Below the pieces are notes generated by a model. It was not told where the DNA came from and searched no databases. It saw nothing but the letters and a program-made list of their open reading frames with translations. This document shows positions 3,564 through 11,680 of a stretch of 64,000 nt of DNA, one piece after another; the first letter of the stretch is position 1, and every line of letters starts with the position of its first letter. Source of the DNA: an uncultured Anaerolineaceae bacterium (GTDB lineage Bacteria; Chloroflexota; Anaerolineae; Anaerolineales; E44-bin32); assembly GCA_964388955.1 (NCBI GenBank), contig CAYMCO010000015.1, positions 21,266 through 85,265 of the forward strand. Reading direction: 5' to 3'. The position numbers and the translations under genes were made by a program.

Positions 3564-4490
3564 TCATGCGCCCATGGCGCGGTCTAGAGACGGCTTGAGC
3601 AAAGCATAGATGGCTTGATGCACAGGCGCGGGCTGGTGATGCTCCTCCGCCAAGCGCACGATTGCCCCGCTGAAGGCCTCCAGTTCGAAAGGCCGACCGC
3701 TGGCGACATCCCGCTGCATGGATGACGTCGTTGCAGGCTCGAAGCTTTCCAGCAACTGCAGGGCGCGCCCCACAACATCCTTGGGAAGGGCGACCCCTTC
3801 CGCATGTGCTAGTGCCTCGATCTCTCGCATCGCGTTGATCAGCAATGCTCGGGTTTGCGGCACACTCAGGATCTCTCCGATGTTCGCGCGCGCCAGAGAT
3901 GATACGCCGCCAAAAGATGCGATGAAAAGAAACTTGGTCCAAATGTCTATGTAGATGTTCGATGAATGGATGGCATCCACTCCGCATTCCCGCCAGGCAT
4001 CGAGCAGAGGCGCGAGCCGCCGGCCCGGATGTCGATCCAGTTCGCCGGCCACGATCCGGCGCAACTGGCTTACCTGGCGGATTACACCGGGGCCCTCGAT
4101 CAGACTCGAGACACTGCAGAGGCCGCCAACCACGGAGGCGGAGCCCAGCGAAGAGAGCAGGATCTGATGCGCATCGATGCCATTGAGGAGCGGCAGAATG
4201 ACCGTCCGAGCCTCGACCAGTGGCTTCATCTGGGCGATCGCCTCGTCGAGTTGATAGCGCTTCACGGCCACGATCAGATAATCGACCGGGCCGATCTCCC
4301 CAGGATCATCTGTCGCTTTGACTCCCTCCAGACGAAAATCCCCGTGGGGGCTCTTGATCTGCAGGCCCCGCTCCCGAATGGCAGTCAGATGCTCACCCCG
4401 GGCGATAAAGGCGACATCATGATTCCCCTGAGCGAGCAGTCCGCCGAAATACCCGCCGACTCCGCCCGTCCCGAAGACCGCGATTCTCAT
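3564..4490 (-). CDS. 2-dehydropantoate 2-reductase family protein (ApbA/PanE)
   Basis: The N-terminus MRIAVFGTGGVGGYFGGLLAQGNHDVAFIARGEHL is a Rossmann GxGxxG motif, and length and overall pattern fit the ketopantoate reductase family. The start is set at ATG 4490 rather than the track start 4541. Confidence 0.75.
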   Translation of the reverse strand: MRIAVFGTGGVGGYFGGLLAQGNHDVAFIARGEHLTAIRERGLQIKSPHGDFRLEGVKATDDPGEIGPVDYLIVAVKRYQLDEAIAQMKPLVEARTVILPLLNGIDAHQILLSSLGSASVVGGLCSVSSLIEGPGVIRQVSQLRRIVAGELDRHPGRRLAPLLDAWRECGVDAIHSSNIYIDIWTKFLFIASFGGVSSLARANIGEILSVPQTRALLINAMREIEALAHAEGVALPKDVVGRALQLLESFEPATTSSMQRDVASGRPFELEAFSGAIVRLAEEHHQPAPVHQAIYALLKPSLDRAMGA

Positions 4491-4757
4491 CACTGCCTCA
4501 CAGATATGTTTGGATCGCTCAGTGATCAAATACCCAGACAAGGCAAGGGACCAACAAAGCCGCTGATGAAGCCGGCCATACGGACGATCCAGTGTTTCCT
4601 TCCAGCATTCCCACGCGTGCCAGCGGTATCCCGGCGATCACCTTGGCGCGCTGCTCTTCAGCGCCAGAGCGCGTCCGAGCAGCGCGACCGGCCATCGGCT
4701 GCCCGAGTTGCCCAGACATCGACCGGGCAGCATGGATCGAACTGATCGGGCTTCAGG

Positions 4758-5360
4758 CTACTTCTTCCCCTTGCGGCGCTCCGCCAGCGCTTGTTCGGCC
4801 GCCTTGCCATAGGCTGAACCGGGAAACGCATCCTGCGCGGCGCGAAAGTGCCGAACCGATCTCGCATCCTGGCCTAGCTGGCGGGAGGCGATCCCAAGGT
4901 TATATTCGCACGCGGCCCGGTAACGAATCCCCAGACCTCCCTGCTCGGATTCATCGAGAACCGAACTGAGTATGGCTTCAGCACTGGCGGGATTCTTGCG
5001 AAGAAGCTGTACGATCCCCATGTTGGTCAGCACTATCAGCCGGGTCTGCCGATCCGGGAAAAGACTCAGCGCGACCTGCAGGACTGCGATGGCGTCTCGC
5101 TGGCGCCCCCTCCCCGATAACAGATTTGCGATATCGGCGAGCAGGCGAGAGCGCATTGTGACCAGATAGATGAAGACCAAGAAGAGAATTGGATTGATGT
5201 TTGATCCGCTGACGAAACCCCCGCCAGACATGAGCAGGGTGATCGCAATGCCTTCCAAGGTGAATTGAAAGGAGATTCCCTCGCGTTTCAAATAGCCCAA
5301 GAACCCGAACAGAATTGTGTAGGCAAAACCCAAGACGATGATCATTAGATACTCATTCAT
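4758..5360 (-). CDS. membrane-anchored TPR-like protein
   Basis: The N-terminal half is hydrophobic (MNEYLMIIVLGFAYTILFGFLGYL..., about 3 TM). The C-terminal half is helical-repeat/TPR-like (AIAVLQVALSLFPD..., RYRAACEYNLGIASRQLGQDARSVRHFRAAQDAFPGSAYGKAAEQAL). It is the last gene of the ArsA-like operon. Confidence 0.6.
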   Translation of the reverse strand: MNEYLMIIVLGFAYTILFGFLGYLKREGISFQFTLEGIAITLLMSGGGFVSGSNINPILFLVFIYLVTMRSRLLADIANLLSGRGRQRDAIAVLQVALSLFPDRQTRLIVLTNMGIVQLLRKNPASAEAILSSVLDESEQGGLGIRYRAACEYNLGIASRQLGQDARSVRHFRAAQDAFPGSAYGKAAEQALAERRKGKK

Positions 5361-5428
5361 CAGATATCCTGATCCGCTGCCCTGGCCTCCAGATCTCCGG
5401 GGCAAAACACCGCAGTGCGCCCGAAGCG

Positions 5429-6406
5429 TCAGGCAAACAGATGGTCAGCCGTCCGCCGAAGCATCTCCAACCCGCGCACTTCTGTCTCGAACAGCGGGAC
5501 GATCGCCCGTACCGCCCCGTTGAAAGTGCTCTCAATCTCCCGCATATATTCCGCCTGCATGGCAACACGATTCCTGACGAATTCCGGCGAGTCCTGGGTC
5601 ACGCTTTCCCGATCGATCACCATATTCACGACAACGCCGCCGACCGGTATACCGAAGTCGCTGAACCAGTGGATGAAGCGGGTGATGACCGCGATCGGAA
5701 GAGCCTCCGGCAGGGTCACAAAGAAGAAGGCGGTCAGTGCGGGATTGGTAAGCAGTTTCTTGGCGTGTTCCATCCGCTGCCGAAAATTGAGCAGATACTC
5801 CATCAGGGGATCCTTCTGCTCCTTCTTCCTGCTGTAGGAGAGCATCTCGCGGAGCGATACAGCTTCCTCACGGCTCTTCATCATCTTATTGACCCACAGG
5901 GAATACACAGAGGACATTCCCAGCAGGCGGCGCGCGTTGGCCGTCGGGGCCGTATCAAAGACATACACATCATATTCATCTTCGAACATCAAGTCGATCA
6001 TGTTCTCGAACATGGCCGATTCTTCAAAGGCTGGGTTCATGGTGGCCGATTCGACGAACTCATCCGCCTTGGTCTTGATATCCGCGTACTTGAGGAACCA
6101 TCCGATCTTCTCTCGGATCTCCTTCTTGGATCGTTCAATCGTCTCGCGTGTATCGATTTCGTAGGCGATCAGATTCATCGCCTCGTCGACCGGAGTGGGC
6201 TTACCGAATATATCCATATCCAGAAGACTGGACAAGCTGTGGACCGGGTTGGTCGAGGCCAACAGGGTGCGCCTGCCCCGATTTGCGAACCACAACGCCG
6301 TAGCACCGGCGAGCACAGTTTTCCCGACCCCACCTTTACCCCCGAAGAACGCATACTTCAACTCCGGTTTTTCTCTCAAGAATTCCTGGGTGGACTTGAC
6401 GATCAT
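5429..6406 (-). CDS. ArsA/Get3-family P-loop ATPase (half-size, cysteine-free)
   Basis: It has the deviant Walker A FFGGKGGVGKT and the ArsA-type DTAPTANARRLL motif. The start is ATG 6406, 22 nt after the upstream stop. There is no cysteine in the whole protein. Confidence 0.8.
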   Translation of the reverse strand: MIVKSTQEFLREKPELKYAFFGGKGGVGKTVLAGATALWFANRGRRTLLASTNPVHSLSSLLDMDIFGKPTPVDEAMNLIAYEIDTRETIERSKKEIREKIGWFLKYADIKTKADEFVESATMNPAFEESAMFENMIDLMFEDEYDVYVFDTAPTANARRLLGMSSVYSLWVNKMMKSREEAVSLREMLSYSRKKEQKDPLMEYLLNFRQRMEHAKKLLTNPALTAFFFVTLPEALPIAVITRFIHWFSDFGIPVGGVVVNMVIDRESVTQDSPEFVRNRVAMQAEYMREIESTFNGAVRAIVPLFETEVRGLEMLRRTADHLFA

Positions 6407-6428
6407 GGCAACGCCCCTTCGCTCGCTC

Positions 6429-7427
6429 CTACGATATGCCAGATTTCGCCGGAACAGGTCCAAACATGGCCTCGGCCATTCTCTGGATCATCGGCAAACC
6501 TGTGATATCGCGCTCGAATTCGGGAATGTAGGCCAGGACTTCATCGCCGAACTGCGCCCGGATGCGATCCAGATGTGTCTCTTGCATCTCGATACGATTG
6601 CGCAGATAGGCGGGGATGGTCTCCTTGGCCAGTTCGGGAGGTATCACGCGATTGACGACATATCCGCATAACGGGACATCATACTTGGCAAAGAGACCGG
6701 CCGCTCTTGCCGTATCCCGCAGGGCCATTTCCTCCGGAACGATGACAAAGTAGAATGCGGTTTTTTTCCGGTCGGTCAGGATACTCGAGGAAGTGTTGAT
6801 GCGATGCTTGATGTCCTTCAATTCAATCAAGATCTGGTCCTCTTCGGTCATCTCCTCGCGTTTTATCAGAGAAGCGACTTTGGTATACTCCTCCATCTCC
6901 TGACGCAAGCGGGTGATCTTGTCAATCCACTCGTCATACACACTGGCCATGCTGAGATAGTAGAGCGCATGCCCCAGCGGGACCAGGTCATATATATAGT
7001 AGTCGTACTCCTCAGCCATAACGATGTCCACGACCTGATCGAAGATGGCGCTCTCCTCCATCGCCGGTTCCGCCGCTGCGGCCTGGATGTAATTCTCGAT
7101 CTCCTCCGGTATCTGCTCCATGCCATACATATCCAGAATCTTCTGCCGGATTTCCTGCTGGTACTCCCGGATGTGCTCATCCGCATCAATTTCCTGGGCG
7201 AAGAGGTTGGGAATGATCTCAACCGGCCCTCTTCCGAAAATATCCTGCTCGAAGATATCTGAGAGCGACGCCTGCGGGTCGACGGAAAACACAAGCACGC
7301 GATGCCCGGATTGGGACAGGTGATAGGCCGTGGCGGCCGAAAATGTGGTCTTCCCCAACCCCCCTTTGCCGCCGAACATGATATAGCGGCGATTGGGATT
7401 CTCTGCGAACATCTTTGCCAATGACAT
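6429..7427 (-). CDS. ArsA/Get3-family P-loop ATPase (half-size paralog)
   Basis: It has Walker A MFGGKGGLGKT and a DLVPLGHALYYL switch-like motif. The start is ATG 7427 with AGGAGG upstream. There is a single cysteine (PLCGYVVN), so no As(III) triad and no Get3 CxxC. Confidence 0.8.
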   Translation of the reverse strand: MSLAKMFAENPNRRYIMFGGKGGLGKTTFSAATAYHLSQSGHRVLVFSVDPQASLSDIFEQDIFGRGPVEIIPNLFAQEIDADEHIREYQQEIRQKILDMYGMEQIPEEIENYIQAAAAEPAMEESAIFDQVVDIVMAEEYDYYIYDLVPLGHALYYLSMASVYDEWIDKITRLRQEMEEYTKVASLIKREEMTEEDQILIELKDIKHRINTSSSILTDRKKTAFYFVIVPEEMALRDTARAAGLFAKYDVPLCGYVVNRVIPPELAKETIPAYLRNRIEMQETHLDRIRAQFGDEVLAYIPEFERDITGLPMIQRMAEAMFGPVPAKSGIS

Positions 7428-7440
7428 CCGGTCAGCCCTC

Positions 7441-7716
7441 CTAGGCCAGTGCGTCGGTGAGGTCCCTTTCACGCAGCATGCGGCGCTTCCAGGTTGAAAT
7501 CTGCGGGACGACATAGGGCAGCAGACGGAGTGAATAGTAGGGGGGCAGTATGGGGACCCCCAGCAGGTCTCCCATCGTGATCAAGATGAAGAGATGCTCC
7601 ATGCTACCGCGCGTCTTCAACGCAAAGCGGGTCATATCGTGGCCGGCCATCCCATAGATGAATTGCACCACGGATTCGGCAATTCTTCTGATCCGGCTGC
7701 GCTCTTCTTCGGACAT
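7441..7716 (-). CDS. small conserved protein, paralog 1 (PPYY block), unknown function
   Basis: 91 aa with GGAGG upstream of ATG 7716. The C-terminus is GDLLGVPILPPYYSLRLLPYVVPQISTWKRRMLRERDLTD. It is a paralog of 7878..8174. Confidence 0.7.
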   Translation of the reverse strand: MSEEERSRIRRIAESVVQFIYGMAGHDMTRFALKTRGSMEHLFILITMGDLLGVPILPPYYSLRLLPYVVPQISTWKRRMLRERDLTDALA

Positions 7717-7877
7717 TTACTAGCCTCCATTGTGTTGGACTTCAAACGCACTGGTCTGCCTTCGCGGTCCTCGTTCTCCCTCATCATCAAGGCAAGGCCG
7801 CGATGGGCCTATGGCTTGGCTGTCCCGGCCCTCTGGCACGCGCCGCTTGCACAGCGCGCTCGGGCGGTGGATTCGGC

Positions 7878-8174
7878 TTAGCCGATCTCCTGGTCTATGA
7901 GATCCGTAAGATCCCTCTCCCGCAGCATACTCCTGCGCCAGTTCTCAAAGCCAGGTATGAGATACGGGAGCAGCCGCAGCGTATAGTAGGGCGGCAGGAT
8001 AGGGATCCCCAGGAGATCTCCGTACACGATCAGCGAGAAAAGGCGATCCTCTTCGCTTCGCGCCTTTTGCAGCTCGCGCGCCCAATCGTAGATCGTCATG
8101 CCATAGAGCACTTCGCGGACCGTCCTGGATGCTTTCCTGGTCAGGGCCAGGAACCGCTCTGCTACAAGATTCAT
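7878..8174 (-). CDS. small conserved protein, paralog 2 (PPYY block), unknown function
   Basis: 98 aa counted from ATG 8174, chosen by alignment to paralog 1. The C-terminus is GDLLGIPILPPYYTLRLLPYLIPGFENWRRSMLRERDLTD. The track start at 8207 is a TTG without an SD. Confidence 0.65.
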   Translation of the reverse strand: MNLVAERFLALTRKASRTVREVLYGMTIYDWARELQKARSEEDRLFSLIVYGDLLGIPILPPYYTLRLLPYLIPGFENWRRSMLRERDLTDLIDQEIG

Positions 8175-8296
8175 CGCTATTGGATGTTTTCTCGACTCCC
8201 CCGGCAATCCGTTTCACAGATCAAGCGTCGTTCACAAATGCGTGGCATGCTCCTATCTGCAGGATTCTGGGCTCTCAGCATCTCCGCTTTCGTTGC

Positions 8297-8695
8297 CTAC
8301 CTCGCCGGAGCCTGATGCGGATGCCGCTGTTCCGACAAGCACTCCTGCAACAAATGGTCAAGGGCATTTCGCTCCCAACCGGCATACAGCATGCGCCCCT
8401 CCACGACGAACGCCGGATATTCGCGCACTCGATGTCGCAGCGAGAGGACAAAACCCTGGAGCGATTGCGGATCCACTACCTGAATTCTGAGCTGATTCCG
8501 AAAGCGCCTAACCAGATCCTCCAACCATTCGGCAAGCCTCGAGGCGTCCTGAAGAATAGCCTGCGGATACTCCTCCAATTGCTCGCGATGGACCTGCCCG
8601 CCGATGCCCGCTTGCACGAAGAATTGCTCGCAATGCGGGCAGTGAAAGAAGCCGGTTGGGATCGGTGCGATTACTCGCAGGTCTATGCCGGACAT
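8297..8695 (-). CDS. thioredoxin-fold protein with CPHC motif (ArsD-like topology)
   Basis: MSGIDLRVIAPIPTGFFHCPHCEQFF... followed by ...LRIQVVDPQSLQGFVLSLRHRVREYPAFVVEGRMLYAGW. This gives a beta strand, a CxxC motif and a later xPxF-V-V-x-G segment, as in thioredoxin/ArsD-type folds. It is the first gene of the ArsA-like operon. Confidence 0.5.
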   Translation of the reverse strand: MSGIDLRVIAPIPTGFFHCPHCEQFFVQAGIGGQVHREQLEEYPQAILQDASRLAEWLEDLVRRFRNQLRIQVVDPQSLQGFVLSLRHRVREYPAFVVEGRMLYAGWERNALDHLLQECLSEQRHPHQAPAR

Positions 8696-8866
8696 CGCCA
8701 AATACCCTCTCAGAAATTCTGGGGGTGAGTTTGGTTCATGAATGCCCCCAACCCACCCCCAGATCCTGCGACAAATCGGCTCGACCGCGCAGGAAACCAG
8801 CTTTGCGGCGCGCCTCCTATCTAGCAGTTGGCCATTCCCTCAATAGCCGAAGGCTGCCTTGGAACC

Positions 8867-10585
8867 CTATGCAGCTTCGGCTGGCCTGGCCTGTCTTGCC
8901 TGGCGAAGCGCCTGGGCGCCGTCCCACACCAAGATCAGCGCGGCCACCACCAGCACGAGGCAGATGATGCCGATCAGCGCCGAGGCCACAGCGGCCTGCG
9001 CAGTCTCCGCCGCGGGCAGCTTCTGAACCAGGTTGACATAAGCGACATAGAGTAGAGCGGCGAGATCTGTGACGATCATGAAGATCGCAGGGTAGAGAGC
9101 CCAAGTATGTCTTCGGCCCTCGGACAGCAACCACAGCGAGACCAGCAGCAGAGCCAGTCCGGCCATGAGTTGGTTGGCAGCTCCAAATGCCACCCAGATC
9201 GTCAGCCAGGGGATGATCCACACAAACAGCGCGGTCAAGGCCAAGGCGATGAGGCTGCCCACATGAACATTCTTCAACGCTGGCACGCCGTCACCCAGCA
9301 TTTCAGAGCTGGCTACGCGCATGAAGCGCACCACCAACTGCATGATCGTTATGGCCATGATCGTCAGGAAGACCGAGCCATAAGCCACGCCGAACCCCTG
9401 TGGGACCCCGATATGGCTCAGGAAGCTGGCCAAACCCCCAGCGAAGACCGCCAGCGCCGCCCCAGCACCACCCGCATCCAGGAACCCTTGCCAGCCGCCA
9501 AATGCCACAGTGGCGGTCAGAAAGGCCATGACGGCGAATGCGGCTTCCATGAACATCGCACCGCCACCCACGGGCAGAGCGTCAGTCTCTTTCTCCAGTT
9601 GGCGGGCGGTGCCCGAGGTGGACACCAAACTATGCCAGCCCGAGATCGCACCGCAGGCGATCGTCACAAAGAGCATCGGCCAGAGTGGGCCTGCCGCAGC
9701 AGTGAAACCTGTAAAGGCCGGGAAGTCGCCCATGCCCGGGTGCCAGATCACCAGCCCAACCAAGCCGCCGATCATGCCCAGTGTGACGATCCAGAAGGAG
9801 ACATAGTTGACCGGTTGAGCGAATGACCAGATTGGAAGCACTGAGCCCAGATAGCAGAAGGCCAGCATGAGCAGCGTGCCAACAACCGCCGCTTGGGTAT
9901 TCCCCAAGAAGACAACGGGCGATTCCGCGCCACCGTACAGGCTGGAGAAGATATTGGAGACGGCCGGTAGCGTCCCAACCCAAATGCCCACAAAGGTCAG
10001 AACGACTGTAATAATACTGGTCAGGATGATGTCCTGCTTCCACCTGTACGTCATCTGACCGGCGATCACGCCCATCAAAACCAAGCTGATCATCCCGAAT
10101 GGGACCTGCGGTTTGACCATCAACGCTTTGCCGACAGCGTTCCCGAACGCTCCCATGATCAGCAGCAGATAGAAGTAGATGAAGATCAGCAGAATGCTGC
10201 GGGCGCGCGGGGAGATCAGCTTGTAGCTGAGCGCGCTCATTGTCTCGCCCTCACGGCGCACGCCCATGATCAAGGATCCGTAGTCCTGGACCCACCCGAT
10301 GAAGAAAACGCCCAGCAGGATCCACAACAGTGCCGGCAGCCAACCCCACTGAACGGCTACGATAGGGCCGGTCAATGGAGCCAGCGCGGCGACGGACTTG
10401 AACTGATAGCCAAAGAGGACATTCCGGCTCGCAGGAGTGAAGTCCACACCATCCATGTACATTTTGGCCGGAGTGGCTTTTGTGTCGTTGGGCTGGACGA
10501 TATCCTTATCAATTCTACGTGCGTATACCCCATAGCCGATACCGATGCCGAGTGCTGCAAGAATCACAATGATTAACGAATTCAT
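8867..10585 (-). CDS. cstA: carbon starvation protein A family transporter
   Basis: MNSLIIVILAALGIGIGYGVYARRID...FTPASRNVLFGYQFKSVAALAPLTGPIVAVQWGWLPALLWILLGVFFIGWVQDY is the characteristic CstA N-terminus. AAGGAGGATGG lies upstream of ATG 10585. Confidence 0.85.
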   Translation of the reverse strand: MNSLIIVILAALGIGIGYGVYARRIDKDIVQPNDTKATPAKMYMDGVDFTPASRNVLFGYQFKSVAALAPLTGPIVAVQWGWLPALLWILLGVFFIGWVQDYGSLIMGVRREGETMSALSYKLISPRARSILLIFIYFYLLLIMGAFGNAVGKALMVKPQVPFGMISLVLMGVIAGQMTYRWKQDIILTSIITVVLTFVGIWVGTLPAVSNIFSSLYGGAESPVVFLGNTQAAVVGTLLMLAFCYLGSVLPIWSFAQPVNYVSFWIVTLGMIGGLVGLVIWHPGMGDFPAFTGFTAAAGPLWPMLFVTIACGAISGWHSLVSTSGTARQLEKETDALPVGGGAMFMEAAFAVMAFLTATVAFGGWQGFLDAGGAGAALAVFAGGLASFLSHIGVPQGFGVAYGSVFLTIMAITIMQLVVRFMRVASSEMLGDGVPALKNVHVGSLIALALTALFVWIIPWLTIWVAFGAANQLMAGLALLLVSLWLLSEGRRHTWALYPAIFMIVTDLAALLYVAYVNLVQKLPAAETAQAAVASALIGIICLVLVVAALILVWDGAQALRQARQARPAEAA

Positions 10586-11215
10586 TGGGCCATCCTCCTT
10601 TTGCCGTTCTGCAAAGGAACTCGACATGATCCATCTTGTGAATTAATCCATCAGATAGGCATTCTCCTTTCTTCCGGGCGGTCCAAAGCGGGCCGGGTCG
10701 AAATTGCATCAGCTCTCAAGGAGCGTGAACGCCCGGCGCCCGGAATTCAGGTGTCTCCCAATCTCAGCTCTACTTGTCAGAATCTTGATACCAACTTGCC
10801 CAGGAGTCGATCACACACGAGATAGCGGGGAGCCAACCGCGTGTGAGTTGAGGGTGGTGAACAAACGGCGAGTCTATTGAAGGAGGAATGGCCTGCTCAT
10901 CGCCCAGTGCCCCCGCTTTTCCGGCCTGGCCAACCAACTCACTCGATCGCCCGAAGCCGGCCCTGGACACATCTCTCGGACCCCTCGCCCCCCATGCGTC
11001 TCCGCCGGGATGCCCGGAGAACAGCCTTTGGCATCTCCCATAATATGCCCATTGACGTCGATTCGCAAATTAATTCCGAGCTTCACAAACTGCGCGCGCG
11101 CTTTACCTCCGCGCTTAGATATGTCTGGACCTCTCCCTCCATCCGGTCCCCCCCAATCTCCCAAGGACCGCGATGACAACCATTCGGCCAGTCGGTCTGC
11201 TTGACCGTTGAGGTC

Positions 11216-11680
11216 TCAATAGGCGTACGCTTTCACGACGGCCTTCCCCATTACGGGGTCCAGCGTGCCCAACGCCCAAAGCTGCAGCCTGTTGAGCCAT
11301 CTATATTCTTCGCAAGAGGTGAATAGGGACACCGCGGCCCTGAGTTGAGCTTCTCTTTCGCCTTCGATTTGTCGTGAGACCCCCTGTGATGAGAATGCGA
11401 TGTTCGCACCATCCTCGGTCGTGACGCGGGCGTGAAGGTGAAGTTGGAACAGGCCGTCGGCGCGCACATACAGATAGTCGGTCCCAGAAATCCTGCCACG
11501 CAGCCTGGGTCCCATGAGGTCGCCCTCGAAGGCTTGATCGAACCGCGCCCCCTCCAACGGAACCTCCGCATTTCGCGAGGACAGCTCTTCCATGCTTACC
11601 CCATATTCGATCGTCTGGGTAAACTGAATCTGCGCCTCGTAGATCAATTCACCTTCGGAGGAGATTTGCATCCGGGTCAT
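11216..11680 (-). CDS. DUF3237-like (UPF0311) protein
   Basis: 154 aa. The pattern GARFDQAFEGDLMGPRLRGRISGTDYLYVRADGLFQLHLHARVTTEDGANIAF matches what I remember of DUF3237 beta-barrel proteins. Confidence 0.55.
   Translation of the reverse strand: MTRMQISSEGELIYEAQIQFTQTIEYGVSMEELSSRNAEVPLEGARFDQAFEGDLMGPRLRGRISGTDYLYVRADGLFQLHLHARVTTEDGANIAFSSQGVSRQIEGEREAQLRAAVSLFTSCEEYRWLNRLQLWALGTLDPVMGKAVVKAYAY

Follow-up and report, generated by a model that had tools for sequence, protein, structure and literature searches.

A 64-kb window, the whole stretch of DNA that we analysed from an uncultured Anaerolineaceae bacterium (contig CAYMCO010000015.1, positions 21,266 to 85,265), carries on its minus strand, between window positions 7441 and 8174, two short tandem genes that we call B and A. 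Their products are members of the Pfam family DUF7990 (PF25952), a domain of unknown function, and they share a C-terminal block that is the core of the whole family and its most conserved part. The two genes sit in a constant cluster with a CstA-family permease, a small CxxC protein predicted to have a thioredoxin fold, and two ATPases of the Get3/ArsA family. We suggest, tentatively and with a confidence that falls a little short of even, that A and B are non-enzymatic adaptor subunits by which a heterodimer of Get3-like ATPases would be held at the membrane or at the permease. The DUF7990 family itself is already catalogued as uncharacterised and is not new. What has gone undescribed, so far as the searchable literature shows, is the constant module, the exceptional conservation of A, the tails that mark the subfamilies, and a helix resembling one in the yeast protein Get2; no mention of DUF7990, or of its relative cory-CC-star, was found in that literature. 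The two genes and the block that they share are as follows.

7878..8174, minus strand: gene B, 98 amino acids; DUF7990 paralog, first of the tandem pair, with the tail ...DLTDLIDQEIG.
7441..7716, minus strand: gene A, 91 amino acids; DUF7990 paralog, second of the pair, with the tail ...DLTDALA.
7902..8021, minus strand: conserved block in B, residues 52-91, GDLLGIPILPPYYTLRLLPYLIPGFENWRRSMLRERDLTD; it holds Gly, Pro, Tyr, Arg and Trp residues that are invariant family-wide.
7453..7572, minus strand: conserved block in A, residues 49-88, GDLLGVPILPPYYSLRLLPYVVPQISTWKRRMLRERDLTD; 30/40 residues are identical to the B block.

Both open reading frames (ORFs), 7716 to 7441 for A and 8174 to 7878 for B, were confirmed, and both are also called, as genes of 91 and 98 amino acids, in a public assembly of this DNA. 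A preliminary description of this DNA had recognised them as tandem paralogs with 30 of 40 identical residues in a C-terminal block, and its coordinates and count proved exact. BLASTP aligns A and B with 43 identities in 79 positions (E 1e-31). In the ungapped register, where residue i of A corresponds to residue i+3 of B, identity is 30/40 in the block that runs from GDLLG to DLTD and 14/48 in the positions before it, among which both proteins have the tripeptide YGM (A 21-23, B 24-26). The nucleotide sequences of the two blocks are identical at 83 of 120 positions, yet third codon positions agree in only 17 of 40 codons, and of the 30 residues that are identical just 13 have the same codon in both genes. 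Such low third-position identity means that the similarity has been kept at the protein level, following an old duplication and under purifying selection, and not by recent gene conversion. A and B are therefore old paralogs, and the 64-kb window holds no other relatives of their genes. Neither protein contains cysteine, and neither has histidine in its block or tail.

The preliminary description could not assign the block to any family, a judgement that has to be revised. The PF25952 label is carried by the proteins identical to B (P0001) and A (P0121), by both genes called in the locus L001, and by all 240 close homologs listed; it is a precomputed domain label, for which the contig look-up gives the name DUF7990, and a Pfam scan of A and B with a model set that lacks PF25952 returned no match. 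A more distant relative is the NCBIfam family NF041419, 'cory-CC-star', which B matches at 46.9 bits (E 2e-12) and A at 33.6 bits. The relationship is clear in the alignment, yet the scores lie far under the cutoff of 80 bits. The alignment for B covers model positions 5-71 of 80 and the family alignments stop at 71-72, so that the C-terminal part of the model, which by its name should hold a Cys-Cys pair, has no counterpart in A, which ends in ALA, or in B, which ends in EIG. All 22 tested members of a second DUF7990 subtype, found in a second phylum, likewise match NF041419 below the cutoff. By these profile scores A and B are distant relatives, and not members, of cory-CC-star. A DUF7990 profile search of 1.84 billion cluster representatives retrieved 456 proteins at E <= 1e-3, which marks the family as a small one. 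Comparison of A by tblastn with 72,556 plasmids gave no match, nor did a phmmer search of PDB sequences with the block, and no well-known domain of unrelated function matched it. In one homolog of B (P0057) 11 residues of the core motif are repeated in tandem within the protein, IGLPILPPYYT LGLPILPPYYT, an insertion that the hairpin loop apparently tolerates.

Conservation in the family is concentrated in the block. Among 106 diverse members, information per column averages 2.92 bits in the block, 2.22 bits in residues 20-48 and 1.12 bits in residues 1-19, and no cysteine or histidine position is conserved family-wide. The near-invariant residues of A fall into two groups, one in the hydrophobic part of the block (G49, D50, G53, P55, P58, P59, Y60, Y61, L63, R64, L65, L66, P67 and P71) and one in the basic helix that follows it (W76, K77, R78, L81, R82, E83, [RK]84 and D85). 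The preliminary description had noted that the N-terminal halves are weakly similar, and had read the uneven conservation as the sign of a constrained surface. Weak similarity is indeed what is seen between the paralogs, but it does not extend to orthologs: in 77 species-level genomes of Chloroflexota, orthologs of A have a mean pairwise identity of 94.8% in residues 20-48 and 96.3% in the block, with third codon positions only 53-58% identical, and among orthologs of B it is 62% for the N-terminal half and 74% for the block. As the N-terminal halves are strongly conserved within each orthologous group, the difference between A and B reflects specialisation of the paralogs and not weak constraint; the block is the most constrained part of the family, and the half that precedes it is paralog-specific rather than relaxed. 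Measured as median identity to the protein in the window, A (81%) is the most conserved product of the gene cluster, ahead of the two ATPases (76% for ATP1 and 75% for ATP2), B (63%), the permease (62%), and the thioredoxin-like protein ORF134 and a membrane protein with tetratricopeptide (TPR) repeats (38% each). The A-type cores from the second phylum have almost the same sequence as A of the window.

The genes around A and B, in the minus-strand order in which they occur (permease, ORF134, B, A, ATP1, ATP2, TPR protein, PanE/ApbA), are these.

8867..10627, minus strand: CstA-family permease; a 586-amino-acid ORF, called as 572 amino acids, with a PF02554 (CstA) score of 379.8 bits.
8297..8695, minus strand: ORF134, predicted thioredoxin-fold protein of 132 amino acids, between the permease gene and B, with an invariant CxxCE.
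6429..7427, minus strand: ATP1, Get3/ArsA-family ATPase of 332 amino acids; PF02374 239.7 bits, TIGR00345 235.5 bits.
5429..6406, minus strand: ATP2, second Get3/ArsA-family ATPase, 325 amino acids; PF02374 229.5 bits, TIGR00345 216.3 bits.
4758..5405, minus strand: membrane protein with C-terminal TPR repeats (TPR_12, TPR_2 and TPR_14 matches), downstream of ATP2.
3564..4490, minus strand: PanE/ApbA reductase, after the TPR protein in the order of the cluster.

This neighbourhood was compared in two sets of loci, the first drawn from 80 species-representative genomes, almost all of them Chloroflexota of several classes, and the second made up of 80 metagenomic loci of the second DUF7990 subtype; linkage was counted only where the contig reached far enough. 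Throughout the first set A follows B (76/76 loci), ATP1 follows A in 67 of 69 loci, and ATP2 is in place in 59 of 60. The CstA gene lies upstream in 54/58 loci and ORF134 nearby in 43/58. The second subtype, whose named members come from metagenome-assembled genomes of Thermoanaerobaculia (Acidobacteriota), has in place of B a paralog that ends in EHDYHLHGL, here the H-type. An A-type gene is nevertheless present in 60 of 62 of these loci, ATP1 in 33/35, ATP2 in 27/28 and CstA in 20/25, and the order is PanE, ORF134, CstA, H-type, A-type, ATP1, ATP2, often with a third DUF7990 gene. The two sets thus differ in gene order, ORF134 lying on opposite sides of the permease gene, but they keep the same gene content, which argues for a functional unit. 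Common to the 160 loci, from at least two phyla, are a CstA-type permease, a thioredoxin-like protein, one to three DUF7990 proteins and two Get3/ArsA ATPases. A third subtype with a single DUF7990 copy (L167) has the order CstA, DUF7990, ATPase, ATPase, and an ORF134-like gene that is transcribed divergently. Whether homologs of the block always neighbour ArsA-like genes had been put forward as a check on the preliminary description; they do so at almost every locus of both sets, the exception being one orphan subtype described below, and the equally constant permease and thioredoxin-like neighbours had been overlooked. Natural gene fusions point in the same direction, as two cluster representatives (P0380 and P0394) are full-length fusions of ORF134 to a B-like DUF7990 protein. 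A further protein, P0435, joins the C-terminus of a CstA permease to a DUF7990 domain; it is a fragment and could not be traced to any contig.

Several further observations concern the make-up of these loci. At some Acidobacteriota-type loci there are three DUF7990 paralogs (in L089 at 4916-5224, 5088-5582 and 7651-7959; also in L090, L097 and L101), one with the His-rich tail EHDYHLHGL or EHDYHLEGL, one of A-type, and a third, after ATP2, that ends in DAIF, DAMF or DALF. The TPR membrane protein is co-conserved in Chloroflexota, its gene lying either downstream of ATP2 or, in divergent orientation, upstream of that for the permease; in the loci of the second phylum no such gene was detected.

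Both ATPases pass the 135-bit cutoff of TIGR00345 (TRC40/GET3/ArsA), at 235.5 bits for ATP1 and 216.3 bits for ATP2, when the ORF translations of 361 and 344 amino acids are scored. Each corresponds to a single half of about 330 amino acids, and both fall short of the ArsA equivalog TIGR04291 (100.1 and 107.1 bits against a cutoff of 650) and of the BagA and BagB equivalogs NF053622 and NF053621 (52.3 and 43.8 bits for ATP1, 49.6 and 43.2 bits for ATP2, against cutoffs of 400 and 521). Their closest solved relatives are archaeal Get3 (3UG6 and 3ZQ6) and ArsA1 of Chlamydomonas (5ZME). The canonical switch II motif, DTAPTGHT, is split between the two proteins, with (Y)DLVPLGHA in ATP1 and (F)DTAPTANA in ATP2. 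In the alignment, the CxxC zinc motif of 3UG6 and 3ZQ6 is replaced in ATP2, and ATP1 has no cysteine in the corresponding stretch. Complementary degeneration of switch II, together with loss of the CxxC of the homodimer, fits an obligate heterodimer that has two different faces, and the sequences suggest that ATP1 and ATP2 form such an asymmetric pair.

ORF134 has no Pfam family. Its invariant residues are C19-x-x-C22-E23 and Y93-P94, the latter in a segment, RRYP(A/T)F(I/V)V, that resembles the cis-proline region of thioredoxins, and a profile of the protein matched thioredoxins in the PDB at E 6e-4 to 9e-4 with alignment over that region. We take ORF134 to be a thioredoxin-fold protein on the strength of this profile search, as a single-sequence AlphaFold model reached a mean predicted local distance difference test (pLDDT) of only 41.

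The block itself has two parts. The first is hydrophobic, with the consensus G-D-x-x-G-x-P-[IV]-L-P-P-Y-Y-x-L-R-L-L-P-Y-x-x-P, and C-terminal to it lies a basic helix with the consensus W-K-R-R-x-L-R-E-[RK]-[DE]. An AlphaFold model of B, built from a 34-sequence alignment, is all-helical, with helices at residues 2-37, 41-54, 62-72 and 76-97 and a break at GIPILPP. Invariant Gly, Asp, Pro and Arg residues break up the hydrophobic stretch, which makes one membrane-spanning helix unlikely; the pattern of residues would better suit a hairpin lying in the membrane interface or a surface buried between proteins. The basic helix in the two proteins is placed as follows.

7462..7491, minus strand: basic helix in A, residues 76-85, WKRRMLRERD, which resembles EKRRLLRERR of Get2.
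7911..7940, minus strand: equivalent helix in B, residues 79-88, WRRSMLRERD, aligned to the helix of A.

Get2 is, with Get1, the membrane receptor of Get3 in yeast, and it binds that ATPase through a basic helix that contains the residues RERR. The sequence EKRRLLRERR is present in PDB chains 3ZS9_C and 3SJD_D. The helix of A is identical to Get2 residues 8-17 at 7 of 10 positions, a score reached in 37 of 100,000 composition-preserving shuffles of A, and it is encoded beside genes for Get3-type ATPases. Get2 has about 285 amino acids, with the motif at its N-terminus and three C-terminal transmembrane helices that pair with Get1. The DUF7990 motif, by contrast, lies C-terminal to a short hydrophobic hairpin, and in place of the three transmembrane helices of Get2 and CAML, A and B have a single short hydrophobic region in 91 and 98 amino acids; we make no claim of homology. 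In Get2, mutation of R14-E15-R16-R17 disrupts the binding of Get3 (PMC8530227). The resemblance is a lead, drawn from a comparison of short sequences, and not a demonstration.

A second parallel is found in Escherichia coli, where small proteins of the YbdD/YjiX family (PF04328, DUF466) are encoded directly after the gene of a CstA-family permease, and where ybdD is required with cstA for the uptake of pyruvate (PMC5847655). The DUF7990 genes are likewise downstream of a CstA gene, although in the window ORF134 intervenes. In E. coli the paralogous pair btsT-yjiX is followed by yjiA, annotated in RefSeq as a P-loop GTPase gene. YbdD and YjiX have 65-67 amino acids, end in Arg-Cys-Cys and lack a Pro-rich hydrophobic hairpin, whereas A and B lack the terminal Cys-Cys. 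A by-eye resemblance between YGMxxYD and IGMPDYD prompted a test of homology, which lent it no support: hhalign gave a probability of 0.6-1.0% with shallow and diverse profiles, PF04328 did not match A or B at E <= 0.1, and NF041419 did not match YbdD. The parallel with E. coli YbdD is therefore one of arrangement only. As a separate observation, YbdD (L082, 4183-4380) and YjiX (L083, 2877-3080) contain L-I-G-x-P-D-Y-D-x-Y and, 26-27 residues later, F-F-R-E-R, which parallels L-L-G-x-P-I-L-P-P-Y-Y...L-R-E-R of DUF7990 with a spacing that agrees to within one residue; the match is not significant (hhalign P 0.07).

The third comparison is with ArsD-ArsA-ArsB and with mycobacterial BagA/BagB, in which an ATPase of the ArsA/Get3 fold, pseudo-dimeric or heterodimeric, has other components as partners. 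For ArsA these are a secondary permease and a thioredoxin-fold chaperone; the ATPase genes bagA and bagB lie side by side in a single operon, like the pair ATP1 and ATP2. The permease of the present module is of CstA type, and not ArsB, and the available descriptions of the Ars and Bag systems contain no component like DUF7990. By analogy, the module could be regarded as a variant of Get3 with its receptor, of ArsA with ArsB and ArsD, and of CstA with YbdD.

We picture A and B as paralogous helical subunits of a module that would comprise the CstA-type permease, the thioredoxin-like CxxC protein and a heterodimer of degenerate Get3/ArsA-type ATPases. The hydrophobic hairpin of the block might be buried in the membrane interface or against the permease, and the basic helix might bind an ATPase subunit in the way that Get2 binds Get3 through its RERR helix. 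Each copy could have a partner of its own, selected by its paralog-specific N-terminal helices: the thioredoxin-like protein, or one or other of the ATPase subunits, which are not equivalent. Together the two proteins would serve as an adaptor, or a receptor, by which the ATPase dimer is coupled to the permease or the membrane, much as Get1 and Get2 serve Get3 and YbdD serves CstA. The sequences themselves show the paralogy, the family membership, the strong purifying selection, the gene linkage, the fusions and the likeness of the motif; each physical contact in this picture, the association with the membrane and the direction of coupling are what we infer from them. A more specific proposal, possible but on the unlikely side, sees in DUF7990 the membrane-side partners so far missing for bacterial Get3-type ATPases. 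They would be minimal receptor or adaptor subunits, with the WKRRxLRER helix engaging the ATPase as that of Get2 engages Get3, and would couple a heterodimeric ATPase to the CstA-family permease.

Several points weigh against an adaptor role. One divergent DUF7990 subtype occurs alone beside haem-synthesis genes, with no permease or ATPase gene within 9 kb (in L165 and L166, at 9001-9297, with the tail ...LTDFVAGDL, its neighbours are uroporphyrinogen-III methylase/synthase and FdhD genes), and the number of DUF7990 copies, which may be one, two or three, is not tied to the two ATPases. Confidence in the model of B is no more than moderate, with a pLDDT of 66.5 that falls to 51-56 in the basic helix, and a Foldseek search of the PDB with it found no structural neighbour, nothing being below E = 2. 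The preliminary description had called for a prediction of membrane segments, and the answer is equivocal: the maximum Kyte-Doolittle score over 19 residues is 1.59 in A and 1.42 in B, borderline for membrane insertion, and the stretch is interrupted, so that the surface that the description proposed for membrane association or interaction keeps its standing as a suggestion. The resemblance to Get2 is that of a short Arg-rich motif, picked post hoc, and the helix of B matches it at only 5 of 10 positions, which is not significant alone. Finally, bacterial Get3 homologs have been reported to lack the residues that bind Get1, Get2 and Get4, and a general chaperone role has been suggested for them (PMC6593721). 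With the yeast contact residues missing, any docking site on the bacterial ATPases would differ from the yeast one.

A and B might instead be accessory subunits of the CstA-type permease only, counterparts, and possibly remote homologs, of YbdD and YjiX, with the ATPases linked to the permease independently. We consider this unlikely, although the position of CstA directly upstream of DUF7990 in both sets of loci and in the one-copy locus L167, the need for YbdD in CstA-dependent pyruvate uptake, the loosely similar L-I-G-x-P...Y...F-R-E-R pattern and the joining of a CstA C-terminus to a DUF7990 domain in P0435 would all agree with it. P0435 is, as said, an untraceable fragment, and kinship with YbdD is not supported, given a profile-profile probability of less than 1%, the failure of PF04328 and NF041419 to connect the two families, and the lack of a terminal Cys-Cys in A and B. 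Moreover, the conservation of A tracks that of the ATPases more closely than that of the permease.

It is also conceivable, but improbable, that A and B are clients of the ATPases rather than their partners, that is, small tail-anchored-like membrane proteins whose hydrophobic segment would sit in the groove of the Get3-like dimer and so be delivered to the membrane. Archaeal Get3 and chloroplast ArsA1, to which the two ATPases are closest, handle tail-anchored proteins; A and B have their only hydrophobic stretch, with the Kyte-Doolittle maxima given above, in the C-terminal half; and their genes are immediately upstream of the ATPase genes. That stretch, however, holds the near-invariant Gly49, Asp50, Gly53, Pro55, Pro58/59, Arg64, Pro67 and Pro71 and appears in the model as a short helix, a break and a second short helix, not as one continuous transmembrane helix, and some 20 Arg/Lys-rich residues that follow it would need to cross the membrane. 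A machine of two ATPases devoted to one or two clients of 90 residues would also leave the constant permease and thioredoxin-like neighbours unexplained.

The natural fusions with the CxxC thioredoxin-like protein raise a further alternative, a thiol or metal relay in which DUF7990 proteins, working with the CxxC protein, would be the carriers and pass a metal, or a redox equivalent, on to the permease or the ATPase, as ArsD does for ArsA. Related subfamilies have tails that are potential ligands, EHDYHLHGL in the second phylum and, to judge by its name, Cys-Cys in the NCBIfam relative. A relay nevertheless seems very improbable for proteins with the composition of A and B, which have no cysteine, and no histidine in block or tail, in a family with no conserved position for either residue and with a core that is hydrophobic and basic and not ligand-like. 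As for the similarity of A and B being an artefact of recent gene conversion, an overlapping nucleic-acid element or chance ORFs, to which the 59.7% G+C content of the window, with its many spurious overlapping ORFs, might lend colour, we give it practically no credence and regard it as ruled out by the pattern of codon positions, since third-position identity is 17/40 between the paralog blocks and 44-58% among orthologs while protein identity reaches 96%, homologs number in the thousands, and Rfam has no match.

The more specific proposal, of a membrane-side partner for bacterial Get3-type ATPases, would if borne out define a new module for ATP-coupled transport or membrane delivery, with the thioredoxin-like protein as a further component, and would hint at what the related cory-CC-star proteins do in Actinobacteria. 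The present locus links two questions, what bacterial Get3 homologs do and how permeases of the CstA family use their small partner proteins (PMC5847655), through a protein of about 90 residues that is encoded between genes of CstA type and Get3 type. Its sequence is about 95% identical throughout one phylum and hardly differs in another, and it has a motif similar to the known Get3-binding helix. Should the adaptor model fail, DUF7990 will still have gained a genomic context, a subfamily structure and a core motif.

Some minor features of the locus may be recorded. The gap between B and A, 7717-7877, is 161 nt, a long interval by comparison, as hardly any space separates the two genes at many orthologous loci. 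Rfam has no family in 4000-11500, a region that spans this gap, and promoter-like and terminator-like sites occur at the level expected by chance, with none that is convincing in the gap. The stop codon of A is separated from the start of ATP1 by 13 nt, in which the sequence GGAGGG is found. A gene for a 2-oxoacid reductase of PanE/ApbA type, seen in the window and in L085, L089-L091, L095, L097 and L100, flanks the cluster in Chloroflexota as well as in loci of Acidobacteriota type, and the E. coli cstA-ybdD pair likewise adjoins a hydroxycarboxylate dehydrogenase gene, hcxA. The adjacency of PanE/ApbA and of hcxA may hint at a 2-oxo acid as substrate.

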